Assembly (NCBI GenBank): GCA_001724265.1
Contig: MEDY01000014.1
Span: 124,001-188,000 of the forward strand
Source of the DNA: Rhizaria sp. SCN 62-66
Lineage: Eukaryota
Direction of reading: 5' to 3'
DNA length: 64,000 bases
Shown: in pieces, positions 4,682-64,000 of the stretch
Layout of the letters: each line of letters opens with the position of its first letter
Position numbering within the stretch: the first letter of the stretch is position 1
Program-made: the position numbers and the translations under genes
The notes under the pieces: model-generated
Database searches by the model: none
What the model saw: only the letters and a program-made list of their open reading frames with translations
What the model was told of the DNA's origin: nothing

Positions 4682-5043
4682 GCTTGCGTCCGAGCGCGGA
4701 CGAGACGCATCCTGGACTGTGCTGGCTGGCTTCGACTTGGGCGGCTGGTGACGAAACGGTGACGAAGTGGCTGCGGTTGTGGTGGATTTTCAACTCGTTT
4801 ATTTCGTTGTTATATATCGCGTATTACCGATTTATAACGCAGTATATCGGTAATATAAACTGTAATTTAATTTATTCACTGGAGCAAGCTCTGTTTCAGC
4901 AAATACATAGGTCTAATAATCGTGTTAAAGTTCGCCACCACATATCTCCTCGGCTCGGAGAAATCCAAACGGAAGCGCGGAGGGGTCATGACAGAAGTGC
5001 AGTACTCTGCACACCCCGAACCGTCAACGCACTGCTAGTCAAC

Positions 5044-5845
5044 ATGTTGAAGAATATCTCCAAGATTACATCTCGTGTCAAAATTACGCGCTCTCTGGTG
5101 CCAGTTGTGACCTGCATCACGCGGGCTCAGGCGACCAAGGCTCCTGTGTGCCAGCACGTCGTCCCCCGTGCCGCGCCCCTGGTCTCTGCCACCGCATTCC
5201 CCGCTGCTCCTCGCGCTGCTGCGTGGCCCACATACGGTGTGCCATTTGTGCCTTCGCGTGGCTTTTCCCCCGACGCTGTCGCTGCCGCTGAGATGCCTGC
5301 CGCCGTCAAACTCGTACGTCTACCGCCCGTCGTCAGCCACGCTCCACTACTTCAAACGTTGCCACTCGATCTGCGATATGCACGACTTTCTCTCGCTATA
5401 TCCGCGCCAAACTGACATATATTTTATACCCGTGTGTTTTGCGTTTACCATTTGAATTTCACGCTGTTCTGTTCTGACTTAGCTCTTCTCTGAGTTCGTG
5501 ACTGCGCTTAGCGCTCTTGCCGAGGACAACCCCGGCATGATCTTGGACCACAACCTGCCCCTGCTGTCGTGCTACGCTGCCCAGCCGCACCACGCGCAGT
5601 GGGCGTGCCCGACGCTGACGCTGACTCTCCCCGCCGGCCGCGGCGAGTACGTGCTGCGCCACTACTCCCCGCGCCCCACGGCCGTGCCCTCGGTTTCGCT
5701 GCAGTCGCCCGTGTCGGCCGCCGCGTATACGTACGCGTACCACCCCGAGCAGCAGCGCTGGGAGTGCACCGCCGACGGACACCTGCTCATCGAGCTGCTG
5801 GTGCGCGAGCTCACGCCCATCTGCCGCGGGTACCCCAACTTCTGA
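5044..5845 (+). CDS. Divergent frataxin/CyaY-like mitochondrial protein, 2 exons (5044-5313, 5483-5845), about 210 aa
   Basis: The N-terminus MLKNISKITSRVKITRS is basic and lacks acidic residues, like a mitochondrial presequence. A phase-0 GTACGT...CTTAG intron joins the two frames. TLTLTLPAGRGEYVL...LQSPVS...YAY...RWECTADGHLLIELLVREL follows the frataxin pattern VLTL..G.YVIN...LSSP.SG...W....DG..L.ELL..EL. Confidence 0.7.
5314..5482 (+). other. Spliceosomal intron (169 nt, phase 0) in the frataxin-like gene
   Basis: GTACGT donor at 5314, CTGAC branch-like motif and TTAG acceptor ending at 5482. Removal fuses AVKL|LFSEFVT in frame. Confidence 0.75.
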
Positions 5846-6446
5846 GCCGCGGGTGAGTCAATGAGGCTGTGAGTTTTCAGATCAAAATATTGAGGCAGTG
5901 ACGCTCAGTGACGCCGGTATAATGGCATATATCACTCTGGTTTAGCTCTGGGGCCATATCACCATGTAACCGCAATGGATAATATTGGCAACAGCACGAC
6001 TGCTGCACGAGTTGAAGACAATGCGAATGAAAGCAAATAGATGACAAACTTACTTAGTATCAGGTTGATGATCGCATGAATCAATGCTATTTTATTCACT
6101 TGTCTTTCTAATATTCTGGAATATCTTTATTTCTTGTAAGTGCGACTTGTACCTTTGTATTTTATTCCATCATGAACTAGAATAAACGTGCAAGCAGACA
6201 ACGGCCCGTAAAAACAGTAAAGATATTGCTCAGGATACAAACTTGATCAAAGTCAACAACCGTAACCCAATAACCTGTAACAGTATCTATCGTGCGCGCC
6301 GTCATATCTGTGTTTGCTCACGGTCGTCACCTCACTGAGAACAGCGCCTCACAGTCCGTGCCCTTAGTCCTTGGCTCGCTCACAGTCGGTCGCTCCCACT
6401 CGTCACACCGCGCCGCGCCGCGCCGCGCCCCGCTCCGCTCTGCTCC

Positions 6447-7739
6447 TCACCACCGTGGCTTGGGCACCACCTTGATCACGACGACGGCGAGCATCAGCAT
6501 GGCGACCGCGGCGGCGAGCATCGCCAGCTGTCCGCAGCATCCACCCCAGCCCTGCCGGTCGAGAAACCGCGCGAGCCTGCTCGAAGTGGCGCGCAGCCCC
6601 GTCTCGAGCGCCTCGGTGACCGTGTCCACGCCGTCAAGCACCGCGCGGTCCGCCGCCAGCGCGCCCGCGATGCCGCGCACGCGGTCTTTGAGCGCGGCGG
6701 AGAGCTCCAAGAGGTCGTCCGCCACAGCATCACGCTCTGCTGCCGTCGCATTCACGGTCGCACCGCTAGAAGAGCTTGAGCTTGAACCTGAGCCAGAGAG
6801 TACTGGGGGCGGGGCGTCGAGGCCGAGGCCGCGGCGGAGGTGAGAGAGCTCGGCAGCGCGGGCCAGCGCGCGGCGCTCGCGGAGAGCAGTAGCGGCGGCG
6901 GACGCTGCAAGGGCATCAACGTCGTCAAATGCAGAATCAGAAGCAGAGCCAGAAGCAGAGGCAGAGGCAGAGGCAGAGGCAGGGTTCTGTTGTGACGCTG
7001 TTGTTGATGCTGCTGTTGCTGATAAGGATGATGAGTCAGACGCGGGGACAGAGGAAGGCGATGCGGACTGCCAAGAGCTCGGAGTCTTTGCAGGATTACC
7101 GTTGTTGGAGTCGTTTGTGTTGTTGGGTGATGTGACACCAAGGCTGGCGACGTGCGCTGCCGCGAACGCTGTGACCGAGGCCTCGAGCGCGGCGCGGTCC
7201 GCGGGCAGTGCGGGCGTGCCGGGCAGCGCGCCGCGGCGGCGCAGCACCGCGGCAGCGCTCGCCGCGGCCTGCAGCGTCTGTATCTGCTCCCCCACCGCAC
7301 TCGCACTCTCCGAGACTGAGTCGCCTGCCTTCGCGGCCGCTGCTGCTACTGCTGATGCGGCAGCGGCGGCCTTGGCGCCGGGGCCGGTGGAGGCGCGGGC
7401 AAGCAGCGCGGGCAGCGCGGCGGTGAAGACGTCGAGCGCGACGGAGTCGGAGAACGCGAGGTGCTCAGGAGCCTCTGCCTCGCCAAGAGCGGCGTGACAC
7501 AGCGACAGCGCTGCACAGAGCTGGCGCTGCGCGACACGAGCGGAGTCGAAGGACGCCGCACGCAGGAACGAGGACCGCGCAGGGTCAAAGACGGAGCTCG
7601 CGTCCGAGGCGGACAGGGAGAAGATGGGCGGCGCAGGGGCGCGCGGGACAGATGGGAGCTTCGAGGAGGAAGCAGTGGTTGAAGATGTTGAGTCAGCGGA
7701 CTCGTCGGGAGACCCCACGATTGCACGGAAAAGCCACAT
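6447..7739 (-). CDS. USE1: Use1-like Qc-SNARE (ER retrograde traffic), tail-anchored, about 430 aa
   Basis: C-terminal SNARE-like heptads RDAVADDLLELSAALKDRVRGIAGALAADRAVLDGVD...L, then one terminal TM helix ending IKVVPKPRW. This matches the Use1 pattern L..LA..LK.......L..D..VL. The start is placed at the first in-frame ATG and is uncertain. Confidence 0.7.
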   Translation of the reverse strand: MWLFRAIVGSPDESADSTSSTTASSSKLPSVPRAPAPPIFSLSASDASSVFDPARSSFLRAASFDSARVAQRQLCAALSLCHAALGEAEAPEHLAFSDSVALDVFTAALPALLARASTGPGAKAAAAASAVAAAAAKAGDSVSESASAVGEQIQTLQAAASAAAVLRRRGALPGTPALPADRAALEASVTAFAAAHVASLGVTSPNNTNDSNNGNPAKTPSSWQSASPSSVPASDSSSLSATAASTTASQQNPASASASASASGSASDSAFDDVDALAASAAATALRERRALARAAELSHLRRGLGLDAPPPVLSGSGSSSSSSSGATVNATAAERDAVADDLLELSAALKDRVRGIAGALAADRAVLDGVDTVTEALETGLRATSSRLARFLDRQGWGGCCGQLAMLAAAVAMLMLAVVVIKVVPKPRW

Positions 7740-8143
7740 TGAATTACAATGCAGAAAACCCGATGTGTGTGTCCAAAAAGCCAAAGAAGCTGCACTTGAC
7801 AGACGATTGGTCTCAGATATCAATGTTGCTCGCCAGCTCTTGTCCAGCCACGAAAAAATCGCAGAGCGCGGTCGCCCACCTCACGGACGAGCCAATTCGA
7901 GCACGCAAACGTGCTCATATACTACGCCGGTCCGCTATGATACCGTAACACTCGCGTATGATGTTTTTCCGTGACTTTTATATATAAATCCATTATTGCA
8001 TTTCTATCGGGGCACGTTATCCCTTCCAGTGGCACTCCTTGCTCGAGGCTCTTTCACTCTCGGCATCGCCCGAACTTCTTCCGGGAACTCACTCTGCTCT
8101 GCCTCGTATATTTCTTCTTCGTTTTTGTTTCCCCCGCAGCACA

Positions 8144-11100
8144 ATGGAGCCGACAACCCGTTTGTGTTTGAAGAACATCCCTTTGACTCTGACAGAGACG
8201 GCGCTTCGCGAGAAGCTTCTGCGCGAGACCAAGGGCGTGAATGGCAAGCCGATTACCGACATGGCGCTCACCGACGTCCGCATCGCTCGCACTAAGCACG
8301 GCAAGTCGCGCCAGCTCGCCTTCATTGGCTTCAAGACCGCGGAGCAGTGCGCCATTGTGCAGCGTTACTGGAACCGCGCGTTCATGGGCACTATCCGCGT
8401 CCAGGTACGTCACGTCGCAACACGACAGCATCACGCTGCTAACTTATGAAACACTTTGCATGAGACTCTTAACGTTCACATATTCGACTGCTGCTGCATG
8501 ATCTGAACAGCCACATGCATATCTATTTGTCACTTGTATTCATTGGTCCCATGCGACATCTATATCGCTCACCACATCCATGCTTGACTCTTCTCTCTCT
8601 TTTTCATGTTCGTTCTCACTGTGATTGCGGCTACGTTTCAGGCTGAGTTCGCGCAGCCCCCCGGCGCGGGCGACCTGGCGCGACCCTGGTCGCGCTACTC
8701 CGAGGGCGCGTCCCGCAACCCCGCCACGCAGGCCCGTCTGGCCGCCGAGCACCAGGCGCGCCTCGACCGCGCGCGCCAGATCGCGCTCAACGGCGGCGTC
8801 TCCACGGCCGCCGCCGACGGCCACTCCCCGGCGCGCAACGACACGGTGGTGGTCAACGGCGAGACGGTCGCGCTCCGCGCCGGCCGCGGCGAGGCGCTCC
8901 TGAGCCCCGAGGAGCAGGCGCTCGCCCGCGCCCGCCGCGCGCAGCAGCAGGCTCTGGCGTTCCATCCCGCTCTGCGCTCGCTGACGGCCGAGCAGCGCGA
9001 GCGCGTGCTGTCGGACCAGCGCTTTCTGGACTACATGGACACCAAGGCGACGGGCCGCGCGGAGCAGAAGACGTTCTGGGACAACAACGACCAGAGCCGG
9101 TCGACTAACTCGCTGCGCGCGCTGCTACTGGCGCGGCGGGAACGCGAGCAGGGCTTCGCAGTCGCGCACGGGGAGACGTATGAGACGCTGATGGCTAGTC
9201 TCAAGGCCGGCAAGGGCAAGGGCAAGGGCAAGGGTGACGACGGGGATGAGTCGACCGACGACGAGGAGTACTTCGAGAATCCCGCGGTGTCGGCCGCCGT
9301 CCGCGACGCCGACGCTGACGCTGTCGAGAAGGACTCCAAGTCCAAGGCTGGCAGCGATGACGACGAGGATGAGGACGAGGAGGTTGAGGACGAAGACAAC
9401 GAGTTCGTGAGCGAGCTTCTCAAGACACAGGCGACAAACCAGGCCAACAAGAGCACGGTGAGTGACGCAGACTACTTCAAGATGAAGGCGTCGTCCTCGT
9501 TCGACTCGGACGACGACGACGACTTCGAGAGCGATGACAACAAGAACAAAAACAAGAACACCCACAACGATAGTGACAGTGACGACGAGGACAGCCGCAC
9601 CCAGAGCGCGAGCAAGAGCAAGAGTGGCCTCACCAGTCGCGCCAAGCGCGCCAAGCCGGACTCCGACTCCGACTCGAGTGACGACGGTGACAGTGACTCG
9701 AGCGACGGCGGCAGTGACAGCGGCGGTGACAGCGGCGATTCGGACTCTGACTCTAGCGACAGTGTCAGTGACAGTAGTGACGATGACGACTCCAAGGTTA
9801 AGCAGGCCTCTAAGCGCTCGCGCCCTGCCTCCAAGAAGGCCGCTGCTTCTGAGTCCGAGTCCGAGTCGGACTCTGATGCCAAGACCAAGAAGAGCAAGTC
9901 TAAGGCCAAGAAGGACGCTAAGGACGGCGATAAGAAGAAGTCTAGCAAGAGCATGAAGGACGACGAGGACGACGACGGGCTTAACTTCGAGTCCGACGAC
10001 GAGGACAGTAAGGACAGCAAGAACTCCAAGAAGGACGCCGGCGCCGGCGTGCGTGCGGCCACCAACGTCCCCCGCGACCTGACCCCCGCGCAGGCCGAGG
10101 CTATGGTGCTCGAGTCCGGCCGCCTCTTCCTGCGCCGCCTCCCGTTCTCAGTCACCGAGGCCGAGCTCCGCTCCGCGCTCGACCGCTTCGGCGACGTCTC
10201 CGAGCTCTCGCTCCCGCTCGACCTCCAGCGCCAGTCCAAGGGCTTCGCGACGGCCGCGTTCACAGTGCCCGAGCACGCGCTGGCCGCCATGCGCGGGCTC
10301 GACGGCAAGCTCTTCCAGGGCCGCATCATTAACGTGCTCCCTGGCACCGCGCCCCTCGTCAGCGCGTCCGCCGGCGCGGGCGGCGCGGGCAGCGGGCCGA
10401 TCGACCCCAACAACCCCTTCGCCGGTCTGGGCGACGACGAGCTGCGCAAGATGACGCACAAGAAGAAGAAGGAGCTGCTCGAGCGCGCGCGCGCCCAGCA
10501 GGGACACAACTGGAACTCGCTCTTCATTTCCCCCAACACCGTCGCCGAGGCCGTGGCTAACAAGTTCCAGATGGCCAAGGCGGCGCTGCTCGGCGCCGAC
10601 GCCGCGGAGGAGCAGGCCAACATCGGCGTCCGCATGGCCGTCGCCGAGACGCACATGATCCAGGAGACCAAGAAGTACCTCGAGGCATGTGGCGTCGACT
10701 TGGACGCCTTCGTCTCGACCCCCAGCGCCGCCACGGGCGCCCGCGGCGCGGCGCAGCGCAGCACGACCACGATCCTGGTCAAGAACCTCCCGTTTGCGAC
10801 CGAGGACGCCGAGCTCCGCAAGCTCTTCAAGCGCTTCGGCGCGCTGGCGCGGTTTGTGCTGCCGCCTTACAAGACGGTCGCGCTTGTCGACTTCGCCGAC
10901 TCCTCCGCCGCCAAGAAGGCCTTCACGGCGCTGGCGTACAAGAAGTTCCACACGGCGCCGCTGTACCTGGAGTGGGCGCCGCGCGACTGCCTGAAGCCGC
11001 TCGACGCCGCCGCGGCGGCCGCGATGCCGGGCGCCGTTGTCGCGCTCTCCGCAGACGGCCGGTCCACCACCGACGTCGCCGCCGCGCTCGACTCGCAGGA

Positions 11101-12070
11101 CCGCCTCGCGGCGGCCAAGGGCAAGACCGCCGCCGCCGCGGCCGCCATGCTCGGCGGCGCCGACTCGGCCGCGGCGTCCTCCGCCCCCGAGAGCGCGGGC
11201 GAGGGCGCCGACGCGGACACGCCTGAGGACCTGGACAGCCGGTCCGTGTACGTCAAGAACATGTCGTTCGACACCAAGGAAGACGGCTTCCGCGCGGCGC
11301 TCGGCGCGCTGTGCCAGAAGGCCTGGGAGAAGCACTGCGCGACCCTGCACCAGCGCGGCAAGACCGTCCCGGCGACGCCGTGGGCCGTGCGCGCGGTCCG
11401 CATCGCGCACCGCACGGCGACCGCGGCCGACAAAGGCCGCACGGTCGGCGAGAAGCTCTCGCTCGGCTACGGTTTCGTCGAATTCTCCACGGGCGCCGCC
11501 GCCGCCGGTGTTGTCGCGGCTGCAACGGCGCAGCGCGGACTGGCGCTCGACGGGCACTTGCTCGAGCTGCGCGTGTCGCGCCGCGGCGAGGCCTCCGCGC
11601 CCGCGTCTGGACTGGGCGGGCGCGCGGCCGGGGACATCTCTGGCGCGCGCGCGCAGACGATCCTGCGCGAGCGCGGCGTCGTAACGGACGAGAAGCGCCG
11701 CGAACAGGAAGAGTGGTCACAACGCTCCACGAAGCTTATCGTGCGCAACGTGCCGTTCGAGGCCAACGTGGGCGAAATCCGCGAGCTGTTTGCGGCGTTC
11801 GGCCAGCTGCGCCGCTGCCGCATGCCCGAAAAGGCCGACCGGTCCTCGCACCGTGGTTTCGCCTTCGTGGACTTCGTCACTGCGCAGGAGGCCCGCAACG
11901 CGCACGCCGCGCTGCAGTCGACTCACTTGCTCGGCCGTCACCTCGTGCTCGAGTGGGCCAACCCAGACGAGACGGTCGAGGAGCTCCGCGAGAAGACGCG
12001 CAAGGCGCAGGAGACGCGCGCGCAAAACGCCACGGCTGGGTTTGTCGAGAAGATGCAGAAGCGCTTTTGA
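8144..12070 (+). CDS. MRD1: Multiple-RRM pre-rRNA processing protein Mrd1/RBM19, 2 exons (8144-8404, 8642-12070), about 1229 aa
   Basis: RRM1 TRLCLKNIP...GKSRQLAFIGFKT, then RPWSRYS, ESGRLFLRRLPF, HNWNSLF, VRMAVAETH, TILVKNLP, PLYLEWAP, SLGYGFVEF, TKLIVRNVPFEA, HRGFAFVDF and THLLGRHLVLEWA, all characteristic of Mrd1/RBM19. Confidence 0.95.
8405..8641 (+). other. Spliceosomal intron (237 nt, phase 0) in MRD1/RBM19
   Basis: CAG|GTACGT donor, pyrimidine tract and TTTCAG acceptor. Splicing gives IRVQ|AEFAQP and completes RRM1. Confidence 0.85.
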
Positions 12071-13097
12071 ACACAGCAACATCATCAATTTCGTCCATCA
12101 GGCTTAGTATTTCAAATGAATCACTCTTTCTCTTGCGACAACAAGCGTTTTGTTGCTGCGTTATGCGCTTAAGCTCACGATAAATGTTATGAACTGTATT
12201 TGTTGTGTCGTCGCAGGGCCATGGCTCGTGGCCACGTATTGTAGTTGCGTGACACGACGGATTGAATACTCATACGATACAAAGCATTTTTATTTCACTT
12301 AAGCTTTCAGAGATCGGATTAAAAAAGCGCTTGTTGGAATGTTACATAAATTAGCATGACATAGTGTATTGATCGCTGTACACGTAGTTGGAATGAACGT
12401 TGTTTTGTTTAAATCAGTCAACTAGATGAACGATACACGTAACGCACAAGCTGATATTACGCAAACGAGTGAGCAAACGAGACCGCGACCGCGATGTCAC
12501 GCGCGAACGAACGCACACAAGTGCGACGACCACGCGTGACAGAGCAAACACGAACGCGACTTGCATCCGCGGTTTTGAAATGTCTTTTCGTTGTAGTAAT
12601 CTAGAGTAGTCGTAAAGTTGTTGGTTTTAGAACATCAAAACGCAATGCGCCGCTAGTCGTGGCGAATGGCATTGAAGTTGAATTTAAAAAAATAAAAAAT
12701 GAAAGGTGTTGTGATTGCTTTAATTGTGAAATACCTTTGTTGTGTGTTGTCAACATTTGCTTGTGTGTACAATTTTAGGGAATACATGTGGCGAGAAAAT
12801 GAAAAGAGAAAGCAAATAAGCCAGAACAACAAACAGATGCAACAGCAACAACAAACAGCAAAAGACATCAATAGCAGCAAGCAGGAACACCTGTGACAGC
12901 ATGCGCCGTTGTGCGTGGTGTTCAGCTGTAGAAAACGTCGGCAGCGAAAACCTCAATACAAGCACAACACAGCGCGCAGGGAACTGGCAGAACACAAAAA
13001 CAATGGAAACGTGTGCTCAGTGCGAGTGTCCTTCCTGGGAAACCCCTTTAAATAGCCTCACAAGCAAAGAGAGCCTGAATGCGTCTCTTCTGCGAAC

Positions 13098-14528: not shown

Positions 14529-15211
14529 CAAACTCTAGTTCGCCAGAATGCGGGAAAAAGTGAACAGCAAGTAGGAGGGGGTAAGTGACGATGAGCTTGC
14601 AAAATGCATTTTGCTAAAAAGACGAAACTGGGCGATATAAACTGCATATATTGATAGCCTCAAATTCGGAAAATATAAAAACCAGTATCTACCGTCCAGA
14701 AAGCCAACCTCCCATTTATTTCACGCCCACGTCATGCCAGTATCTAAATAGAATGCCTGTCCCGTCGCCCATTCGACGAGGAAGCCTGCCCCCTCTATGG
14801 CTGACGTGACCAACCACCAGTCGAATCTCTGACTGCAGTCCAGTTGCGGCCAAACTTTGCCCTCGAGCTCACGGTCAACCAGCCCCGGTCACCAGTCCAA
14901 CAGCTCGGTCTTCTCACTCTCAGTCTATGAATTTTTGCTCGCATGGAGCTTAGCGGTGTATAGTTAGAGTGTATGAAATTGCAGTTTTTATAACTAAATA
15001 GAAGAGAAGCGCGGGTGTTTGATCTTTGTTTGCTGTTGCTAAACAACGGTGTTATGTGTGTTTGGTAGTCGCTCGAAAGATGTGTAGGTTGCCCTGTCCG
15101 ATCGACTTTATGCTGACTGCTGCTGCCCTTGTCGCCCTTGCTTTCCCTGTGCAGACCTCGCGGTTTCGCGTTTTGCTTTCTCGTAGGTCTGTGCATTTTC
15201 TGCCCCGTCCT

Positions 15212-15280
15212 GTGAGTTTCCGCCCTCTTCGTTCCCCGCCTCCGCCCCGTCCCGCCCCGTTCCGTCGTCACTAACCACAG
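15212..15280 (+). other. Probable 5'-UTR intron (69 nt) of mitochondrial uL11
   Basis: GTGAGT at 15212, a pyrimidine-rich body, CTAAC at 15271 and CACAG ending at 15280, 6 nt before the ATG. Confidence 0.55.
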
Positions 15281-15286
15281 CACACC

Positions 15287-15823
15287 ATGAGCAAGGCCAC
15301 CGCCGCCGTCGCCCGCACTGTGCGTCTCATCGTTCCCGCCGCCAAGGCCAAGCCGTCCCCCGCGATCGGTCAGGCCCTCGGTCAGCTCGGTGTGAACATG
15401 ATGATGTTCTGCAAAGACTTCAACGCCAAGACGACCCACTACAAGGACGATATTCCTCTCCGTGTGTCATTTACGGCCTACCCCGATAAGACCTTCTCTT
15501 TCACCCCGCTTGGTCCCTTCTCCTCCTGGCTCGTCAAGCAGGCCGCCGGCGTCGGGCTCGGCGCCGCGCAGACCGGCAAGGAGCGCGTCGGCACCATCCA
15601 CGTCAAGCAGCTCTTCGAGATTGCCCGCGTGAAGCAGTCTGTTGAGCCCGGTCTCAAGGCCATCCCGCTCGAGTCGCTCTGCCGCTCGCTCGCCGCCACG
15701 TGCCGCTCCATGGGCATCGCCATCGACGCCCGTCCCCGCGATGTCCCCGCCGGCACCAAACGTTCCCCCGCGCCCGCCATGGCCGTTGTCACTAAGGACA
15801 AGAAGAAGGGTGGCAAGAAGTGA
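15287..15823 (+). CDS. MRPL11: Mitochondrial ribosomal protein uL11m
   Basis: VRLIVPAAKAKPSPAIGQALGQLGVNMMMFCKDFNAKT, SWLVKQAAG, GTIHVKQLFEIARVKQ and TCRSMGI are bacterial/mitochondrial L11 motifs. Confidence 0.95.
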   Translation: MSKATAAVARTVRLIVPAAKAKPSPAIGQALGQLGVNMMMFCKDFNAKTTHYKDDIPLRVSFTAYPDKTFSFTPLGPFSSWLVKQAAGVGLGAAQTGKERVGTIHVKQLFEIARVKQSVEPGLKAIPLESLCRSLAATCRSMGIAIDARPRDVPAGTKRSPAPAMAVVTKDKKKGGKK

Positions 15824-16438
15824 GCAACTTCACGTGCTGGTGTGCTTCCTTCGCTATTTTATCCTTACAAAACAAAGGCCAAGTATGTTCTTGCGCCTCG
15901 CAATACAAAATATTTGTTCGCTCATATCCCCCAATGCCACTATTTTTTTCCCTGCCCCACATATCACCCGCCAAATCCGTCCGTTACTGTTCTCGTCCTG
16001 TCTTCACTGTACCCAGCTGCGGTCTGGACCCAGTCGGTCGGTCAGTCGGTCGGTGTCGAGAGCACGCGGCTTGAGTTTGGGCCACCCAGACTTGGGTCGC
16101 GAGGTGCACCGTGCAGGTCGATTATCTCGCCCGGGGCGCTGTGTGATTAGTTCTATTTTTATTTTACACGTTGTGTGCTGGGTTTTCTATTTGAAATTTA
16201 GTCTTGCTTTGCTCCCGTTGGATTTCATGGCTTCTATTTAGACCTACCGTGTGCGTTGATCGTCGATGCCAGTTGTCCCCTGCAGCCCTGTTCACCTTTC
16301 CCCCTCCGACCTCGCCCCGCCTCTGCAGCTTTCCCGTCGCGCCTCCGCCCACTCCTTGGCCTCAAGGACCCTTCTGAGTCTCTCCGTAACCCACCTGCTG
16401 CCGCTGTCTGGGCTAACTCACAGCTTCCCCGCGTCGCA

Positions 16439-18736
16439 ATGAGTACGTTTCTTCTCTCTCAATCTGAATCTTGTGTCGTGTTGCCCTTCCTCGCATCGCA
16501 CCTGGTGCCATCTTTTCTCGTCTAGGCGCGATGCCTGCCCCATATCTACGTTTTCCAGCTTGTGGTGTTTCCTCTCCTTTTGAAATATTTTCTTTCCAAC
16601 CGCCTCTCACCTCCACATTCCCGTCCTATATTCCCGCCCTCCCTCCTCGTTTTTGTTGCTCCCGCTCTGCCTCGCCCTCGCACGCGCGCCCTCTGCCCCT
16701 GCTGTCTCCCGCTCTCACATCGCCCCTGCTTTCACTCCCGCGCAGGCACGACGTTCGACGTTGACCCCGTCGCCCTCTTCCTGGAAGAGTACAAAGAGCC
16801 TGGGATCGACCATGGAGCGATGATCGCCCTCGTCAACCGCCTGACGGCCGTGGCCGCCGCTGTGGGCCCCAAGCGCGTCGTCACCGAGCTCATCCCTCTC
16901 GTTGCACAGCCCTCGTTCTACCAAGTCGAGAACGACGAGGTTCTCTCGGCGATCGGCCGTCAGCTGCTCGCTCTCTTCGACATCGCCGGTGGCCCCGCCA
17001 CCGCGGCCGACACGCTCCCGCCGCTCATGCCCGTCTTTGAGTCGCTGCTGGCCGAGGAAGAGGTCATCGTGCGCCAGTCGGCCGTCACGTGCCTCACCGC
17101 CATCGTCGCCACGCTGTCCCCAGACGACGTCGCCAATCTCGTCCTCCCTACCTTCAAGCGTGTCGTCCTCAACGACTGGTTCGCGGCCCGCGTCTCTGGC
17201 GCGTCCGTCGCCCCCGCGCTGCTCGCCGCGCTGCCTGAGTCGCAGCTGGCTACCATCCGCGGCGTCTTTGCCTCGCTCATGGCGGACGAGACGCCCATGG
17301 TGCGCCGCGCCGCCGCGCTCGCGCTTCCCGCCTGGACCCACGCACTCGCGCAGGCCACGGCGCGCATGCCGCCCCAGGCGCGCTTCTCCCACATCCGCGC
17401 CGACATCTACCCGTTCGTGCGCGCGCTCTCGGTCGAGGACCACGACTCGCTGCGCGTCCTCGCGCCGCCCGCGCTCGCCGCGCTCATCGCGCGCATGCGC
17501 CCCGCCGACTTCCCCCCCGTCGCGCTCGCGCTCGTCGAGGGCCTCCAGGACGACTACTCGTGGCGTGTGCGCCAAGCTCTCGCGCTGTCGATGGCGCAGA
17601 TTTGCGAAGCCACCGTCACGCTTGGTATCGCGCAGAACGCGCCCGCCACGCCCGCGCCCGCCGGCGCCCCGGCTCCCGCGCCGCACGCAGACACGGGCGT
17701 GCACTTGCGCAAGATCCTCGCAGTCTACGGCAAGCTCTTCAAGGACAAGGCGGCCGACGTGCGCGCCGCCGCGGCGTCGGTCGCCGCCGACGTCGCCAAG
17801 GCCTGCGTCGGCGTGCCGTTCACGCCCGTCACCAAGCGCACCAAGCGCGACCCCGCGCTGGACCTGTCCCCGCTGCCGCTGCCTGCCCCGCTGCCCGCGG
17901 CGACCAACCCGCACTCTGGCGGCGCCGTGGAGACGATCCTGGCCGCACTGGACGAGCTCGTCACGGACGCGTCGGTGGACGTCAAGCTCGACCTGTGCTC
18001 GTCGCTGCTCGCGCTCGCCCCGCTCGTCAGCAAGGACAGCGTTATGAAGACGCTGGTGCCCGTTTTCCAGCAGCTCTGCCGCGACGACGCCGTTGAGGTG
18101 CGCAATGCTGTCATCGAAGGCCTGGAGATCATCAACGAGGTTGTCGGTCCCCAGGGGCTCACCTCGGCGCTGCTGCCTTTGTTTCTGGACCTCGCCAAGG
18201 ACACCAAATGGCGCATCCGTATGGCCGTCGTCGGCAAGCTGGGTTTCCTGGCCCGCATCCTCGGCGTCAAGGTGTTCGAGAAGCGTGTACACGCCATCCT
18301 GCTGCTGGCGCTGTCTGACCACGTGCACTCGATTCGCCAGCGCACGTGCGAGCAATTGGGCTCCGTCACGCAGCACCTCGGCATTAAGTGGGTCGTTGAG
18401 CGTCTGCTGCCGCCCGCGCTCGCGCTGTACGACAAGACGCAAAACTACCTGCACCGCATGACGTCGCTGCTCTTTGTGCTCAACACCGTCGCCGCGGCCG
18501 ACAACGCGTGCCCCGCCGATGTGATCGAGCGCCACATGCTCCAGGTCGTGCTCGCGGGCGCCACCGACGACGTCGCCAACGTGCGGGTTGCCGCTGCGCG
18601 CTGCTGCATTGAGATGGCGCCTCGGCTCGATGCCAAGCTCGTGCAGGCCAAGATCAAGCCGCTGATGGCCAAGAACGCCAACGATGCGGACCGGGACGTG
18701 GCGTACTTCTCCGGCCTTGCTCTCAAGCTCTGCTAA
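16439..18736 (+). CDS. Protein phosphatase 2A scaffold subunit A (PR65-like HEAT repeats), coding exons 16439-16442 and 16746-18736, about 664 aa
   Basis: DPVALFLEE, ELIPL, DEVL, EEEVIVRQSAV, DWFAARVS, DETPMVRRAAA, DSLRV, DYSWRVR, DTKWRIRMAV, DHVHSIR, NYLHRMT, DDVANVR and DRDVAYF are PP2A-A signatures. ATGA plus GC across the intron gives MSTTFDVDP. Confidence 0.92.
16443..16745 (+). other. Spliceosomal intron (303 nt, phase 1) immediately after the PP2A-A start codon
   Basis: GTACGT donor, identical to two other introns here, a long pyrimidine-rich body and CCCGCGCAG acceptor. It supplies the ATG otherwise missing upstream of the conserved DPVAL motif. Confidence 0.75.
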
Positions 18737-19100
18737 ATAACAAAGCTGAAGAAAGCAAACAACAAACAAAACTCAAGCTTCACTCGTAAAACGTGTCAAC
18801 GAACTTGGACAGACCGTGGCGTGCTACCACTACCACTAGGATCGCGCTCGCTGTGGTGGGTGAGTTTCAACGCTGAGGCTTGTGTTGAGTTGAGGTGTAA
18901 AGCTGGCTGGAGGATGCTGAGTTCTGTTCAAAGTGAAAAGTGAATATGAAAATGAACTGATGTTGTGTTTGTGAGTGGTAAAAAATGAGTGCAGTCTGTG
19001 ATCCTAGACGGACAGGTACTTTATAGATATAAGACAGAAGAGTAGTATAATGTAGTAATTTGAAGTAGTATAAGTATCGCCTGTTTCATCTATAGTTTGT

Positions 19101-19116
19101 AAAAAAAAAAAAAAAA
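19101..19116. repeat. A16 homopolymer downstream of PP2A-A
   Basis: Sixteen consecutive A residues seen directly. Confidence 0.9.
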
Positions 19117-19852
19117 TGTTTTTTAACATATTTTTGTCTGTGTTCGTTGTTTGCGTTTGACGACGAGTAGAGTTGAATTGGAGTCGTGTATTTCGCAGTT
19201 AACGAGCGAGCGTGCAACTGACGACACTGTGGCATTGCGAGGTGCACATTAGCTGTTCTACTTGAGAGCTCATGTGCTGTTTTCGCTGCTCCGTGTGTGC
19301 GTCAAAGCAATGCAAAGCGGTCGCGAGGCGGGGGGCTGAAGAGGCCCGGTCGCTGTCGCAAGCTCGCACAAGCGAGAGTGAGAGCAAGAACAGGAACGAA
19401 AGCAATCAGCGCTGATCTTGCTCTGGTGTTGTTGTCGTCTCTCTCCCTCTCCGTCTCTGGTTTTGACTTGAGTCGTGTCTGGGTCAGCGTTGTCAAGCTG
19501 TCCTCTGTACATTGATCGATCAATTGGCATGGCTTTTCTTGGCTTTGACGTGCAAGGGCTGCAAATATTGCCATGTACGAAACATTATGAAACAAAAATA
19601 TACTAAATACAAGTATGTTTATCCACAACCCTACTGCTTTACTCTGCTTGAATTGCATAAAGCGCTCTGTCGTGGTCGTTCACAACTGCCTTCGGACCTC
19701 TCGATGTCGTCCAAGAAGTCTTATCGTAAAACATGTATATCTTGTTCAACTGATCGTCATTCCTAAAATCGTTCTTGTATGCTATTTTAGCGACACTATA
19801 AATTACAAATGTTTTATTATATTCCTCAACTTCTTCAATTCATCTCTTTAGA

Positions 19853-20500: not shown

Positions 20501-21826
20501 GCACTTTGTGTGATCTATTGCGTGCGTGGTGCAGTGTGGCTCTGCAAGGGTGCTGTAAGGTGCGGGCGTAACAAACAAAATGCTGCTGTTGTGACGTACT
20601 CTCTGTGTTAAGTGGGCTTTAAAGGGAACAACGAAGGACAGTGGGAGAGATACGCGGATATTGCAACTTAAGACATGCGGTGTTGAGTGTGATAACACTG
20701 ACTGGCACGCTATGACGAGCTGGGGCCGATGCGACGTCTCTTAAGCAGTGAGTCTGGACCCGGAATCTGTAAGAAGGATTATTATCATTTATATAAAGTC
20801 GCTTTTGAATAAATACGCAATTTCGGATTCCATACTCTCTATTTTCTCTAACGTACGTTTTTATTTTAAACATTTGTGCAAATTGTGATTCTTTCTATTT
20901 TGTTTCCTGATTTCAGGCGATCAAATGAAGCATCGCCAGAAATCTTTTCAAGTTAACTGGGATGACAAAACATTTATCAATACAGATAATAAATGACTTT
21001 TTAAAAAGAAAAACACAATTAGACTCTTAAAGCAAAGTTGTATATGTATGACATGCGATTACCATGCACAAGCGCTTTATGAAGTTTCACATCGATCGCT
21101 GATTGAGCGGAGCGCAATACACTGCAGTCTCCACAGAGCTCATTTAAAGAGCGAGCAGGTATATGCCTGTCCACCAATAAAAAAACACTGTTTTGTATTG
21201 GATATTCAAAATTTGTAACAATGTCATGTCTCAATGTCGGTTGTAGCAAAAGCGCAGGATTGGCAGCATTCTACGAGGAACGACTTGACTCTTTTTTGCT
21301 AACAACTTCTGGTTGGTCAACGGGCAGGCCGATCCGACCGAAAGGTGCGTCGCTTACCACTTTCGAGCTTATCTCAGCTCTACAGAGCTAGGATTAGCAA
21401 ATGTTATGAATTGATTTGACATGTTGAGACACGTTTCTGTTTGATTTGATTATCATATCGGCAGCTGACGTTATTTATAGCTCTGGGCAGGTAGCCGACG
21501 CACATGACGTTAGCGTCGTGTGGCCACTCATTCACTCTGGCGGACTCTACTCAACTAAGTCGTCCGATGAGGCCGTTTTGGACCTTGCACCATGGGCTTA
21601 ATGACAATTTTCTCTAAGTGGGCCTCTTTGTGCGGCCTCTAAGGTCCTTCATTTAAGCGCGCATTCATGTTTTGTAGGATCAGGCCGGATCGCCCTTTCT
21701 ACGCACCACTTCTCCGAAAGGCGCATTTCTATCACAAATCTCACACATTTGGCTGACCGATGCATGTCCCAACTCGAAATGCTGTTTTTTTTCTTTTAAA
21801 TGGCTTTTCATAGACTCAGAAAGCTA

Positions 21827-23002: not shown

Positions 23003-23532
23003 GTCAACAACGGCGCGCAGTGCGACTGTGTGACGATCAGCTAACAGCGTGAGTGAGCGCTGGGTGCTGGTCAATCTGTGTGATAACTGCTTTTTATGCT
23101 GGGAGAGGCGCTGTTTGTGTACAGTTTGAAACCTGCTGCCTCTCAGGTAACGTGTTAACAGTAAGAACTCTCTTGCGAGTCTCTGCAGGTGCAAGTGTAC
23201 AGCCAATTCGTGATATAGTACCACCAGGACTCCCTTTTCAACGTGAATACACCCCTCTTAAACTTTATTTCACTTCAGTAGCCTCGCGACTGTTGATATC
23301 ATGATTACCATGCTGAGATGACGCTGAGTGGTGGTGAGTGGCATGCAGTTGTAAAACGAGATTTGAATGTAGTGTTTGACATGCAGAGACCGTTGTTGTG
23401 AGTGCTTTTCAATGATAGAGTAAATCAATGTCAAAAATTAATTTTCTGGAAATTATGCATCTAGAAAAGTTCTCTATCATGTTCTCACAACAAATTTCAA
23501 ACGTTGCTTCAACCACTTCATTGTAGACTCTG

Positions 23533-26885: not shown

Positions 26886-27424
26886 CGTTCTTGTCCTTTG
26901 TTGTCAGGTGGGTAAAAGACAGTTTTGTCAAGAGAGATGCGGTGAGAGCGACAGGAAGACGGAGTGGACAAAAGTAGAAAATTCGGGGTGAGAATACGTG
27001 AGTGAATTCAAGTTGTACGCGGGTGTGATTGTATAAACAAATAACATTTATCACAGTTCTACATAGCCAGCCGCGTATTACTAAGCTTAGCGGATGGCTT
27101 GTGGCACATAATCAACGTTTGATAAAACGACACGACACACCACGTCGCTTTGCGATCGCGCATCTCGGGCTGGAGGGAGGAGTGTAAAGTATCCAACAAA
27201 CCACGCGAAATGACTGGATAGTTGCATGTTTTCGTTCCATACGCAAATTATAACTTGAACACAACAAAATAGAAATGGACAGACATAGAGGCAGTTTCTT
27301 GTACTTGAATAGTTCTGTATGTATGGCCAGAGCACAACTTTTAAAAAAGCACTAGCCCCACAGAGCACAAGCCATACTCGTTAGTTTATATTCTCGAATG
27401 AGATTGACAACTGCACAGCACCAC

Positions 27425-35550: not shown

Positions 35551-36350
35551 ACAGGGCGGAAGACTGCGGTAGAGATAGGGCAACGCATGAACGTGGGGAA
35601 AGGTGGCAAACACAAACACAAGAGGGGAGCGACAGCACAGCACGCGAGTTGGTGACGGAAGAAGGTAGAGATAGGAGGGTGAGGGAGTGCAAAAAAAGGG
35701 GGCGAGTTGAATACTGCGGGCGGTGTTGGAGCATCATATACAGCAGATGAGGCAGACTGACAGTCGTTTCGTGGACCATACTGTGCCAAGCTGGGGTGTC
35801 GTAAGGGCGGCACGCGGCTGGCGACCGCTCGCGAGCAGCTCGTTGGGTCGTCTTAGCCTTCGTTAAGCGGACTCTAAAAGCCATGATTGGGGATATGGAT
35901 ATTAAAAGCAAGTACAACCCGTACGAGATAATTTCAGACACTAGAAAAAAAACACCACGACGGCCAATTTCCCTCAGGAGCAAGCGTGAAGCAAACCAAC
36001 TTGGGTTTCGCCTGTGTGTGCTCCTGACTGACAGACTGCTCGATCCAAATTTGGACCGCCGCCAAAAAGTGACCATGGTCCGGTAGCCGTTGTTTGATTG
36101 CAGAGCGAGAGCCATCGTTTTTAGAAGGCATCTTCTGCGTTTGAATTTCTCGATGCAGCATCGCCGGGCGGGAATATATATATTGAAAAGACTCAATATA
36201 GTTTGGGTTTAACATGGCTTTGCTTTTGTGAAGCGAATCTCTTCAAGCTTACGTCCCTGCGCCTGTCCTGAAAAACCGCTCATTGCACTCAACGGCGCTC
36301 ACTCCTTCCATCCCCCCACTTTCCTTCGCCGTTCCACCGCTACAGGCGTC

Positions 36351-55653: not shown

Positions 55654-57050
55654 TTCACGCGCTGCGCAGCGAACAAGGTGACGACAAAAGCGTGGTAAGT
55701 GGTGGCGCCGCAAGACACATAATGCGCAGTCAATATGCTAGTTTCAAGCTATATAGTTCCACTTAAGTATACAACACGATCGATGCAATACCATACAAAT
55801 CACATGCATCATATGATCGATTAAAATGCCTCCAAATTCAACATGCAAGTTGCCTCATCTTCTTCTCCGTCCGCAACTTCGGCGCAAAACTTTGCCGCTC
55901 TCGAGAGACCGAAAAAATAGGATGACGCAAAGCAGCCACTATCCACCTGAATTGTATTGCTGCACAAAGACTCAACAATAGGACTTGAAAAATAACACGT
56001 TCACCCAGTAGCTAACTAAAAATGCCATACTAAAACGTGTTTATCTTTGTACTTACAACCATTATCTATGTTATATCTGCATTTTCAAATTGCGGATGAC
56101 TTAAAGGTTGCCCGAGATTGTCGCGCTATTAGTGCGATATAGAGGCCTCATGATAACTCTAACAGCTTTCGTTGCATAATATTACTTGAAAACATGTTGA
56201 CGTATGTACACACATCTTTTTATGTCATCTAGGTATGTTTGAGTCTTATATCATATGACTTATAATATTGGAGGCGATCTCGAATTGGCAGCGTTGATGT
56301 TGCACGGGATAAGGTTCACAAGATCAAAGTTCACGTTAATTTTCGGCTCGCTAAGCACTGCGTAGCACAAAATCCGCAACATTTGCCTGCTATTGCGCCA
56401 TATTGGTGTAGATTCACTTTGTCGCACTCAGATGAAGAGCGAGCTGTTCAAGTCGACCCCATGTATTTAATGCAAGATATCCAAGATAATATGTTAGCTT
56501 CTGCAGGAAGTTTGTCAGGACTACAGATGTATATACCCGAAATATGCAATAACATAAGGAAACCCTTGGGTACCTGCACATCTATGAGAAATGTGACCTT
56601 TTCGACTTTCACCACAAGTTGCTTGTGGTTCTCTTCTGTGCCTGGGTCCAACTTCGCTGCCGACCAAAGCGGGTTCACACAATGCTTTTTCTGTAGAGCG
56701 TAATCGTGTTTGGACAAGGTTTTGCGCGATTATAATAGAAACACGCATTAGCTGCTCTGGTTACAAACAGTGTTGCAAAGCCACGTTCGGAATGCGGCGA
56801 TATCCTGTGCTTTCGTGAGACTGAGGACTGGAGCAAGGGCGATGAGACAACATCTTTCGGAGGGTCTCATTCTCCACAATGCCCTGACATGCACATATAG
56901 ACTTGCACCGTGATATAAGCGACACTATAGAATATGTTCACATTAAAATATCTATCTAGAACTTAAATTTCATAGTATTAACCCTCTTTTTTCTCTTGAA
57001 CGTCATCCGAATCGTCCTTGGCCCCTCCACAACGAGCAGCTTCTCCACAC

Positions 57051-58095: not shown

Positions 58096-58119
58096 TGTCT
58101 GTCTGTCTGTCTGTCTGTC
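58096..58119. repeat. (TGTC)6 microsatellite in the SDR 3' region
   Basis: Tandem TGTC units seen directly. Confidence 0.85.
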
Positions 58120-61300: not shown

Positions 61301-61859
61301 CGTCGGTGCCGTCCACATCGTCGTCGCAGGCGCGCGGCAGGAGCGCGCGCGCGGTGGCTTCGCGCTCGAGCGAGGCGTCGAGCATCTTGAGCAGGTCCTC
61401 TTCATCAACTTCTTCGACGAGCGCGGCAGCGCATAGGTAACGGCCACTGTGCGCAGCGGCGTAGTGCAGCGGCGTGGCGCCGTTACAGGTTGATGTCGGG
61501 AGCGCGCCGTGGCGGAGCAGCCAGCGCACGACGCGCGGAAGATCGAAACGCACCGCAGTGAAGAGAGGGGTTGAGCCGGAGGACGTGACTTGCTCTCCGG
61601 TCCATGACCACAGGATCGAGGACGTCTCCACCCACCGGTGGATTTCGTTCGCGACCATGAATCGAGCATGCGTCTCGAGAATTTTGAGAATGACATCTTC
61701 GACATACTCGCCTTCAGCGCACTTCAGCTCCCCGCTCGAGTACTTTGCTTTGTAGTCATGGGAGCCGCGCAATGGATCAAGGCGAAGAACCTCGCGCAAG
61801 ATGATGTCGTTGATATCACGAGGTTCAGAAAGATCCGAAAGCTCGTAGAGATACGACAT
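58311..61859 (-). pseudogene. Ankyrin-repeat gene of 1182 codons in one frame, interrupted by two in-frame TAG codons (pseudogene, or readthrough/recoded gene)
   Basis: Track ORFs 61149..61976, 60498..61001 and 58311..60464 share one frame and are separated only by TAG at 61149-61151 and 60498-60500. Ankyrin motifs GSTPLFTAV, GATPLHYAA and GATPLECAA, plus LLRAAVRGGNEGCVRLV after the first TAG. Confidence 0.6.
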
Positions 61860-62404
61860 CAATCTACGGCCTCCTGTTAACACGGGGTGGTTGGGAGTGT
61901 GTGTGGGTGAGTTGAGTTGCGTGCCAAAAGTCGCGATAGATAGGAGAGGTTTGTGATATCTTTTGGTTGTGATCACACTTTCACGAGAGTGAATCGAGAG
62001 GTACTAAAGAGAACTAGAGCACGTGCAAAAGAAAACAAAACCTTAAACAACGCGACAGTTTCGGTTTAACACCAATTACTTGACACTGACGATCAGACTA
62101 TGTCATATCAAACATGAATGAGATTTCACTTGGTTCAGCGCTGCCAGTGGCCGAGCGAGACGCGTTAGCAAGAGAAGCCATCCTAATTAAAAGCATCTTG
62201 CCGTGAGCTGATCGTCAAAAGCCTCCACATTTCACGACTAAACGGTTATAGCGTAAATATATATAATATCTTTATTACGAACGATTGAAACTCATCTAGC
62301 AGTGTCTATGACCTTGTCTTTGATACCGTGTACTTTCGCCACAACAGCTTGCTGCGCCACGGATTCTTCCTTTGCTGACGCGGACTAAGACATATCGTCC
62401 CCTT

Positions 62405-64000
62405 ATGCGTCTTTTAACCGCATTTCTAGTGCTGGCTACTGCTGCCACCGCTCTATCAGCAGCGGCGCCGGCCGCCGTGTGCATCGGCAGCGGCGACACG
62501 CCCCAGGCTCCCAAGTCACAGCAACTTGGTTTCTGCCGCCAGCACCGCAAGTCGACGTGCTGCTCGGCCTCGAGTGAGCGCTCCGTGATCAAGGCGGCCG
62601 AACCCTTTTTTGCCGAGTCCCGCGCCGTCCTGCTGTCTGCGCCGACGGACCCCGCGCTGCTGCCGCCGCTGGCGACGCTCTTCACGTCCCCCTTCCCCGC
62701 CACAGCCGCTCCTGACGCCCCCACCGAAGTCGAAGTGTTCCGGTACTCCATCCCCGCCGCGTGCCGCGCCTACGCGGCCTCGCTTCTCTGCGCACGCTGC
62801 TCAGCGGACGTCGGGACCGGCCGCGTCGCCGGCGTGTGCGTCCGCTCGTGCCAGCAGTGGCACGACGCCTGCGCAGACGTGCTGTTCCGCCCGGATCCCG
62901 ACGTTCCCGGCGCACTCCTCCCCTGCGCCGAGCAGTCCTACGCTCGTCTCTCTGCCGCGAGCGCTGAATCTGCCGCCGACGCCGATGCCAGCGCGCCCGT
63001 GTTCATCCCTGTTGCGTCCGAGCAGGCCGCGCTCGAAGCCAAGGCTCTCGCGTCCGCGCTCACGATCGACGACACGCCCGCCGTGCGCGCCGCGCTGGCC
63101 GCCGCGCTGGCCGCCGCCGCGGGCTCCGCGCCCGCCGCGCCGCTTGTCTGCGCGCCGCTGCGCACCCTGGTGGCTACTGGCCCCGCGCTGTGCGCTGCGT
63201 ACGGCGTCGAGGTCGCCGATCCGCTCGACTCTTCTGCCGACGAAAACGCCTTTGCACGCGCCGTGCTCGCGCTATACGCCGGCTACCGCGCGCTGCCGCC
63301 CGCGCTCCTGACGAGCGCGGCCGGCGACGCGCTACGTGCTGCCGCGCGCAGGGCCGTCGCCGGCGCTGATGTGAGCTCTCTCGACTCGGCGGCCGCCGCG
63401 CTGACAGCACCAGCCGCGGACGCGCTGCGTTTGACTCGCGAGGCCTTCGAAGGCCACCGGTGGGCGACTCGCAGCGCCAACGCCGTGACGGGTGACGAGG
63501 CTGCGGCCCTGCTGCCCGCCGCCGGGCTACTTTCCTGGACGGCAGATGACTCTGCTGCTGACTCGGAGACCACAGGCCGGTTGATCGGTATGTCCGCTGA
63601 GTCAGCGAGTGCCGTGCTTGCCGTGTTGCGCCCCGCGCTCGCGCTGCCGCTGTTGCCACCGCTCGGCATCTCCGCCCCCGCTTCTACGGCGCGCCCTGGC
63701 TCCTGGCTGCCGGTTGCCAGAGCGATTGGCGCCGCGGGGGCCGCCGCTTCTGCGAGCGGCGCCGCGCGGCACGGCTTGATCGTCAGCACCACCGCAATGC
63801 TGCGCGACATCGCCGCCGTCAGCGAGGCCTTCAATGCTAATGCAGCGGTTTCTTCCGGCGGCGCGTGGGACTGGACGCTCCCGCGGCAGCAGCAGTGTTG
63901 GGACGCGGCGACCGCAGACTCCGCGCTGAATGACTGGCTCGTGGCGCGCGCACGCAACCCGGCCGTGCAGCCCGCGACGGCGCTGCTCTCCCTCGCCGGC
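62405..64000 (+). CDS. 3'-truncated secreted folate-receptor-family (Cys-rich) protein, absent from the ORF track
   Basis: Manual translation is open from the ATG at 62405 to the window end. Signal peptide MRLLTAFLVLATAATALS, then C...FCRQHRKSTCC...CRAY..SLLCARCSADVG...VCVRSCQQWHDAC...LLPC...LVC..L.....ALC...G..V, the Cys spacing of plant/protist Folate_rec proteins. Confidence 0.7.
   Translation, partial: MRLLTAFLVLATAATALSAAAPAAVCIGSGDTPQAPKSQQLGFCRQHRKSTCCSASSERSVIKAAEPFFAESRAVLLSAPTDPALLPPLATLFTSPFPATAAPDAPTEVEVFRYSIPAACRAYAASLLCARCSADVGTGRVAGVCVRSCQQWHDACADVLFRPDPDVPGALLPCAEQSYARLSAASAESAADADASAPVFIPVASEQAALEAKALASALTIDDTPAVRAALAAALAAAAGSAPAAPLVCAPLRTLVATGPALCAAYGVEVADPLDSSADENAFARAVLALYAGYRALPPALLTSAAGDALRAAARRAVAGADVSSLDSAAAALTAPAADALRLTREAFEGHRWATRSANAVTGDEAAALLPAAGLLSWTADDSAADSETTGRLIGMSAESASAVLAVLRPALALPLLPPLGISAPASTARPGSWLPVARAIGAAGAAASASGAARHGLIVSTTAMLRDIAAVSEAFNANAAVSSGGAWDWTLPRQQQCWDAATADSALNDWLVARARNPAVQPATALLSLAG

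Follow-up and report, generated by a model that had tools for sequence, protein, structure and literature searches.

Pyrimidine-rich tracts ending in YAG before start codons point to possible spliced-leader trans-splicing in a wastewater protist

In this study, we have analyzed a 64-kb stretch of DNA (the window, positions 124,001 to 188,000 of contig MEDY01000014.1, deposited as Rhizaria sp. SCN 62-66), in which start codons tend to be preceded at short distance by a pyrimidine-rich tract ending in YAG (Y being a pyrimidine). This tract-plus-YAG pattern is real, and in the two genes whose 5′ ends are covered by RNA, those for a CoA-transferase and for PP2A-A, the RNA stops matching the genome precisely at a Y|AG; in addition, one cis intron is seen directly in the RNA, at the beginning of PP2A-A. 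The tracts with their YAGs probably mark true 3′ splice sites within the 5′ leader of the pre-mRNA. The best single explanation, to which we give a little short of an even chance, is that spliced-leader (SL) trans-splicing acts at many genes: at a large share of them, whatever lies upstream of the YAG would be cut off, and a short exon encoded elsewhere than beside the gene would take its place, the genes being monocistronic and the distance from acceptor to ATG being mostly 1–17 nt and in some cases about 100 nt. The broader proposal, that an unsampled and possibly stramenopile-related lineage of heterotrophic wastewater protists adds an SL to most of its mRNAs, with the acceptor 1–17 nt from the ATG, is more tentative still. 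Metagenome contigs are the only source from which this lineage is known, and it has at least four relatives in environmental data.

The pattern was assessed on 20 gene starts, all from the window. A YAG is found within 17 nt 5′ of the ATG at 13 of these, or at 14 if the Asp-box gene begins at ATG 21827, against a background rate of 0.38 (10,267 of the 26,852 positions between genes, counted on both strands, and 169 of the 441 ATGs found there), with a binomial p of 0.014 or 0.004, respectively. The abundance of YAGs near starts described in an initial annotation of this DNA is thus borne out as an enrichment, with a count that departs somewhat from the 14 of 19 given there. The signal sharpens when the YAG is also required to close an AG-free zone 40 nt or more in length: this combined feature is present at 9 of the 20 starts, as compared with a background of 0.044 (1,261 of 28,452 positions between genes; p = 7e-8) and with a single case among 20 in a control built from 3′ flanks (gene 3′ ends, opposite strand). 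With strong donors unenriched upstream, these nine sites have the appearance of unpaired 3′ splice sites. The pyrimidine content of the sense strand is 0.58–0.63 in the 150 nt before the ATG, 0.47–0.53 after stop codons and 0.61–0.74 in the three coding introns, the composition of the tracts being like that of the 3′ ends of the host's introns and unlike that of its 3′ untranslated regions (UTRs), and the GCAG ending of the confirmed PP2A-A intron recurs in several of them. Upstream ATGs occur within the tracts of the PH-domain gene (−38, out of frame), Met-tRNA formyltransferase (−54), ATP11 (−44) and the importin-4/5-like gene (IPO4; −67), which makes it improbable that the mature 5′UTR includes the tracts and fits any model in which the mature mRNA lacks them.

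RNA was compared with the genome over positions 7500–27499 of the window, a stretch of 20 kb. Two runs, X1 and X2, come from one wastewater sample and were used as assembled contigs rather than reads; both are taken as cDNA, judging by their patchy cover and one spliced contig, whereas a further run, X4, is DNA-like and covers the stretch evenly. A run with almost no sequence words of the window (X5) was left out. At MRD1, ATP11, the Asp-box gene and the lactamase gene the 5′ ends have no RNA cover, and the RNA is uninformative for them. The CoA-transferase contigs follow the genome to 14536, the A of CT|AG, with zero RNA upstream, and continue beyond this point with 8 (record 3) and 11 (record 10) letters that can be placed nowhere on the 20-kb stretch. 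The TAG 6 nt before the ATG, proposed earlier as the acceptor of this gene, is therefore the very point at which the RNA leaves the genome. In PP2A-A, agreement between the contigs (records 5 and 11) and the genome begins at 16327, the A of CTGC|AG; RNA cover is zero in 16171–16326, and the 13 (X1) and 32 (X2) letters that precede 16327 are likewise placed nowhere on the stretch. Cover beside both boundaries, as calculated from the listed contigs and as observed, is 4.55 and 4.54, 5.27 and 5.28, 4.44 and 4.52, and 4.72 and 4.72; the listed contigs fully explain the bin depths, and RNA cover is therefore nil for about 150–300 nt upstream of both boundaries. This absence of RNA is seen at transcript depths of 8–17, and the X4 DNA covers the same upstream parts evenly.

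In both of the two genes with a covered 5′ end, then, the RNA stops matching the genome at an acceptor (14536 and 16327), and in both the letters common to RNA and genome at the boundary are exactly AG, which fits a single upstream piece that ends in AG and has neither C nor T as the preceding letter. Loose contig ends are absent from the eight listed X4 DNA contigs within the stretch and present at 3 of the 14 ends of the seven listed own-organism contigs of X1, where they fall at Y|AG 14536, at Y|AG 16327 and at a donor-like GTGAGC at 15820; this distribution points to splice junctions rather than to transcript ends. The unplaced letters would then belong to a shared leader, and the same event would take place at the remaining genes.

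The only RNA joint observed connects 16442 to 16746 in PP2A-A (GT..AG, with a side of 116) and is found in an X1 contig of 2,429 nt and an X2 contig of 1,607 nt. The matching protein P0032 begins MSTTFDVDP, and this N-terminus together with the joint therefore sets the true PP2A-A start at ATG 16439, a start that came to light solely from the RNA contig. With ATGA|GTACGT at its end, the first coding exon is followed by an intron that a genomic contig of a relative, L001, has at the same position. The 185-nt C-rich tract ending at 16745 is accordingly an ordinary cis intron: the largest tract near this gene (16443–16745) is joined to a gene-specific exon. Between positions 1–142 of L001 and 16380–16460 of the window, a 5′UTR block immediately 5′ of the PP2A-A start is conserved along with the position of the ATGA|GTACGT intron, the PP2A-A proteins being 71% identical. 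This block, GGGCTA[A/G]C ... CGTCGC[A/G]ATGAGTACGTTT, includes the CTAAC at 16413. In the relative, a CTGAC and a T-rich tract are followed by a TAG 75 nt before its ATG.

Several observations weigh against SL trans-splicing as the general explanation. All the RNA evidence comes from one sample, two genes and assembled contigs, and a polyA metatranscriptome (X3) gave only unspliced or DNA-like contigs (records 18 and 19). Contigs of X2 also carry loose ends, of 19 and 27 letters, at the non-splice coding positions 14131 and 18210, where X1 has no loose letters (record 3 ends flush at the former and record 5 passes through the latter); some of the 32 letters found at 16327 may thus have arisen in assembly, and the statement that the extra letters are not encoded within 20 kb is therefore weaker, resting on few letters. 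The overhangs are known by their lengths alone, and one common leader at them is what we infer. Neither the gathering threshold nor a cutoff of E up to 1 brought out any Rfam RNA in the window, an SL RNA gene included. In PP2A-A, the CAG at 16421–16423 (−15) and the CTAAC at 16413 are read through by contigs that run unbroken from 16327 to 16442, and the acceptor that the initial annotation had proposed there is thus unused. By lengths only, the protein P0002 of the relative, which derives from a spliced RNA contig of 1,484 nt, implies about 155 nt 5′ of the ATG, which is more than the 74 nt that follow the relative's TAG plus a leader of usual size. The GC-rich window has many AG-free runs that reach 70 nt or more (90 on the + strand and 84 on the − strand, 174 in all, many of them in coding sequence), and run length alone is therefore weak evidence; in the 80 nt before the 14 candidate YAGs, AG occurs 22 times and GA 30 times (p = 0.33). 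Lastly, at uL11m, the gene of the CTAAC at 15271, a GTGAGT donor is paired with the CAG across 69 nt, and about 1,210 depth-nt of RNA cover outside the listed contigs lie somewhere in 14837–15324, upstream of this gene.

In the light of these points, the earlier claims about the tracts and about the reach of trans-splicing hold in part. The AG-free zones at 8048, 21721, 36248 and 35713 and those before the IPO4, ankyrin and lactamase genes are present where they had been placed, as are CTAAC at 15271 and 16413, GTATGT at 19613 and GTGAGT at 23334; what had been called an AG-exclusion zone amounts to a tract poor in purines, stopping a few bases short of the ATG, in which AG is no rarer than GA and there is no AG-specific exclusion. 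For trans-splicing at most mRNAs, the departure of the RNA from the genome at Y|AG in CoA-transferase and PP2A-A speaks in favor and the read-through at −15 in PP2A-A against. The picture is a mixed one, in which some of the listed YAGs are unused.

Among the competing explanations, the one that survives best, and which we consider rather unlikely, is that 5′UTR cis introns are the general rule, each acceptor just before an ATG being paired with a short gene-specific first exon upstream. Yeast-like intron-poor genomes have few introns, which sit at the 5′ ends of genes and have strong donors of the GTAYGT type and branch points resembling CTAAC. The coding introns of the window are 5′-proximal in the same manner (after about 270 nt in frataxin, after 261 nt in MRD1 and after ATGA in PP2A-A) and all three begin GTACGT; uL11m and PP2A-A (ATGA|GTACGT) fit the yeast-like picture, whereas most of the tract genes have no strong donor upstream. 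Donor-like hexamers do occur upstream of uL11m (GTGAGT ... CACTAACCACAG, 69 nt, with the unexplained RNA cover upstream), of Met-tRNA formyltransferase (−135 and −199), of ATP11 (−240) and of IPO4 (−403); the 8–13 unplaced letters of X1 are too few to be located even if their source lay close by, and the long 5′ part implied by the RNA-derived contig of the relative is also in line with cis introns. Strong donor hexamers (GTACGT, GTGAGT, GTATGT and GTAAGT), counted within 400 nt upstream of the 20 starts, are nevertheless not enriched, with 6 on the sense strand and 7 on the antisense strand for about 9.6 expected, and none is found at seven of the genes with the best tracts (within this distance of MRD1, CoA-transferase, PH, ZC2HC, IPO4, ankyrin and frataxin). 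This absence of enrichment argues against the near-obligatory 5′UTR cis intron that the initial annotation had offered as its alternative. Moreover, RNA cover is zero for 150–300 nt upstream of both RNA-defined acceptors at a depth of 8–17; the AG|GT sites upstream of these acceptors that would fit the shared letters are poor donors (GTTGGC, GTCTGC and GTGCAC) with no RNA cover, and the 32 letters of X2 are unplaced in 20 kb, although joints with sides of 20–21 letters were detected.

A core promoter is the next explanation to be considered, and an unlikely one: the tract would be an element similar to the CT box, the Y|A an initiator, the 5′UTRs very short, and the extra letters artefacts of adapters, template switching or assembly. 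Both RNA boundaries do fall at pyrimidine|A, the usual initiator dinucleotide, with zero cover upstream; AG is not specifically excluded from the tracts; and TATA-like elements lie 56–180 nt before the ATG in MRD1, ZC2HC, CoA-transferase, IPO4, ATP11 and the gene at ATG 62405. A eukaryote with ordinary scanning would not normally have 5′UTRs of 3–15 nt at most of its genes. A transcript that begins at the end of the block would be expected to carry no reproducible extra letters, and the contigs carry 8–32 of them at both boundaries; the other 11 listed contig ends of X1 have none, its third loose end falls at the donor-like GTGAGC, and the tracts look like the ends of the host's own introns. 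In fungi, according to two reports (PMC9703631, PMC4624585), functional pyrimidine-rich core-promoter elements are found between the TATA box and the start site, and this CT box resembles the tracts in being a pyrimidine block on the sense strand, with a TATA-like element on one side and the beginning of the mature RNA on the other; it measures 15–19 nt, as compared with 55–150 nt for the tracts, whose contigs have extra letters at the boundary. TATA-like elements are located at 7965–7980, 36173–36186, 62257–62262 and other positions, 100–180 nt before ATGs and upstream of the tracts, and an order of promoter, tract, YAG and ATG fits this layout.

Mixed or unforeseen cases are assigned a small share of the probability. 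Least probable of all is that composition alone is at work, the tract being a pyrimidine-rich contiguous 5′UTR and the YAG the chance first purine pair with no processing: the 174 long AG-free runs, the parity of AG and GA and the read-through of the −15 CAG in PP2A-A, and possibly in uL11m too, would agree with it, and it is contradicted by the sharp stop of RNA cover at YAG in 2 of 2 genes with a covered 5′ end, by the upstream ATGs within several tracts, and by a sense-strand-specific enrichment before starts (9 of 20 versus 1 of 20 in the control).

For uL11m, a small 5′UTR cis intron or plain read-through is more likely than trans-splicing. Its acceptor lies where the initial annotation had it; the GTGAGT donor and the RNA cover upstream weigh against its use in trans. 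No RNA joint at the candidate 5′UTR intron is present among the listed contigs of X1 and X2. At the other end of the gene, an X1 contig follows the genome to 15820 and continues with 9 unplaced letters; the GTGAGC at this point overlaps the stop codon TGA (15821–15823), and a possible 3′ intron would take out the annotated stop codon and alter the C-terminus. The spacer between uL11m and PP2A-A includes, at 15883–16016 (+), an element resembling an intron, with CAA|GTATGT, a 131-nt AG-free tract (pyrimidine 0.69) and CCCAG, without X1 cover. Two candidate partners for the PP2A-A acceptor were tried and rejected: a GTATGT at 15883 paired with 16328 would make the exon end in CAA, which clashes with the shared AG, and joining the donor-like 15820 of uL11m to 16329 misfits the letters at both boundaries.

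Other routes to a leader gave negative results. Clusters of eight window proteins contain no 5′-extended RNA-derived members, a search for short N-terminal CoA-transferase fragments returned none, and the only repeats in the window that might have been leader relics are coding low-complexity repeats. The 11-mer GCGACACTATA has two exact copies and five matches with at most 2 mismatches, for 10.1 expected, which is not above chance. Both copies, at 19790–19800 and 56919–56929 (+), are followed by TATA-like sequence and stand before ATP11 and SDR.

SL trans-splicing is scattered across eukaryotes, and its origin, as well as its purpose outside operons, is unsettled. In eustigmatophyte stramenopiles (Monodopsis, Vischeria and Microchloropsis), as described in one study (PMC8570151), it affects 36–89% of genes, mostly outside tight operons, with leaders of 40–57 nt ending in ...ACAG; from reads, over 12,000 acceptor sites and 24–239 genes for SL RNA were defined. 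The layout in the same study, in which an AG acceptor lies within 100 bp of 48–82% of genes and the leader ends in AG, is similar to that proposed here, and the two systems have in common mostly monocistronic genes, a compact genome and possibly the supergroup. The leader and the SL RNA genes of eustigmatophytes have been demonstrated, whereas the leader proposed here is deduced from contig boundaries; the letter before the shared AG should not be C, unlike in ...ACAG; and the host appears to be heterotroph-like, with no close named relative. For the rhizarian Paulinella micropora, a study (PMC6053224) describes SL trans-splicing with a pyrimidine-rich outron and an AG acceptor near the ATG, together with cis introns, as in the window; SL addition was proven there by cDNA and genomic PCR (polymerase chain reaction) and by SL RNA genes, and is unproven in the present case. 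Cryptomonads are a further case (PMC5619915). In the paper library searched, SL trans-splicing is not connected with thraustochytrids, labyrinthulomycetes or bicosoecids, nor with Rhogostoma or other cercozoans of activated sludge.

If SL trans-splicing is indeed at work, a compact, intron-poor and non-operonic genome would offer a clean case for the role of the leader, be it a uniform short 5′UTR or the removal of upstream ATGs, and a lineage would be added to the known distribution, with a further independent or deep origin outside operon-bearing or polycistronic lineages. If the sites are cis introns or promoter blocks, the finding is an ordinary one. Gene models in this DNA need spliced 5′ ends, starts based on open reading frames (ORFs) being wrong where a tiny first exon exists.

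As for the organism, the window holds about 21 genes on both strands, with few introns, and a GC content of 0.50–0.74 per 2 kb, higher in coding sequence than in spacers. It includes genes of mitochondrial function, namely frataxin-like (a label of the initial annotation to which Pfam gave no confirmation), uL11m, ATP11 and Met-tRNA formyltransferase, and the organism is therefore aerobic; sequencing runs from wastewater and activated sludge contain its DNA. For PP2A-A, identity is about 30% with homologues of animals and fungi and 44–71% with four unnamed environmental proteins, and MRD1 is 35–41% identical to oomycete and chytrid proteins. In a quick MRD1 tree, which took in 33 of 120 listed matches, the window protein and four unnamed relatives form one clade (Shimodaira–Hasegawa-like approximate likelihood ratio test, SH-aLRT, 100) on the oomycete side (SH-aLRT 93), a weak hint that the host may be an unsampled stramenopile-like or SAR (stramenopile, alveolate and rhizarian) lineage. 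A protein atlas gave no taxonomic resolution for the window proteins. The divergent proteins in question, PP2A-A (16820–18736) and MRD1 (8642–12067), belong with a tight clade of four environmental relatives. Among the YAGs considered as possible acceptors, 14 have their G at 5038, 8139, 14535, 15280, 16328, 19851, 21813, 23526, 35564, 36345, 51460, 55662, 57039 and 61874. The sites are collected in the following table, with two coding introns for comparison.

Table 1. Candidate acceptor sites, introns and related elements in the window (coordinates from the first letter of the window)
Feature	Position	Strand	Description
MRD1	8048..8139	+	90-nt AG-free tract (pyrimidine 0.74), ends CCGCAG, 4 nt before ATG 8144; 5′ end without RNA cover
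CoA-transferase	14535..14596	-	59-nt AG-free tract (pyrimidine 0.75), ends CTAG, 6 nt before ATG 14528
uL11m	15212..15280	+	Candidate 69-nt 5′UTR cis intron, GTGAGT ... CACTAACCACAG, ends 6 nt before ATG 15287
PP2A-A	16286..16328	+	41-nt AG-free C-rich tract, ends CTGCAG, 110 nt before true ATG 16439
PP2A-A first genomic exon (5′UTR + ATGA)	16329..16442	+	RNA contigs unbroken; holds CTAAC 16413 and CAG 16421-16423
PP2A-A cis intron	16443..16745	+	303 nt, GTACGT ... GCGCAG, pyrimidine 0.74; RNA joint
ATP11	19791..19851	+	59-nt AG-free tract, ends TTTAG, 1 nt before ATG 19853; TATAAA 56 nt before ATG
Asp-box/sortilin-like	21721..21813	+	91-nt AG-free tract, ends CATAG; TAG between in-frame ATGs 21800 and 21827
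Met-tRNA formyltransferase	23469..23526	+	55-nt AG-free tract, ends TGTAG, 6 nt before ATG 23533; GTGAGT at -135 and -199
Beta-lactamase-like	26896..27058	-	161-nt AG-free tract, ends AAG (not YAG), 10 nt before ATG 26885
PH-domain gene	35564..35713	-	148-nt AG-free tract (pyrimidine 0.76), ends CCGCAG, 13 nt before ATG 35550
ZC2HC	36248..36345	+	96-nt AG-free tract (pyrimidine 0.71), ends CTACAG, 5 nt before ATG 36351
ZC2HC upstream element TATATATAT	about 175 nt before ATG 36351	+	
Importin-4/5-like	55662..55737	-	74-nt AG-free tract, ends GCGCAG, 8 nt before ATG 55653
Ankyrin gene	61874..61959	-	84-nt AG-free tract, ends TAACAG, 14 nt before ATG 61859; second TAG at -4
Frataxin-like coding intron (comparison)	5315..5484, boundaries +/-1	+	GTACGT ... 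TTAG; from sequence only
MRD1 coding intron (comparison)	8405..8641	+	GTACGT ... TTTCAG; from sequence and reading frame; no RNA joint, RNA cover low

At the PH-domain gene, a 247-aa ORF in another frame (35372–36115, −) overlaps the tract and promoter; it has no Pfam match and is probably spurious. A database protein of 686 aa, P0041, carries the PH protein through the tract, starting from a GTG. Elsewhere in the window, long ORFs without Pfam domains occupy 27425–32635 (−) and 1–4681 (+); they abound in acidic or alanine-rich codon repeats (runs of GAC/GTC and GCG/GCC), and these repeats supply most of the direct-repeat families in the window.

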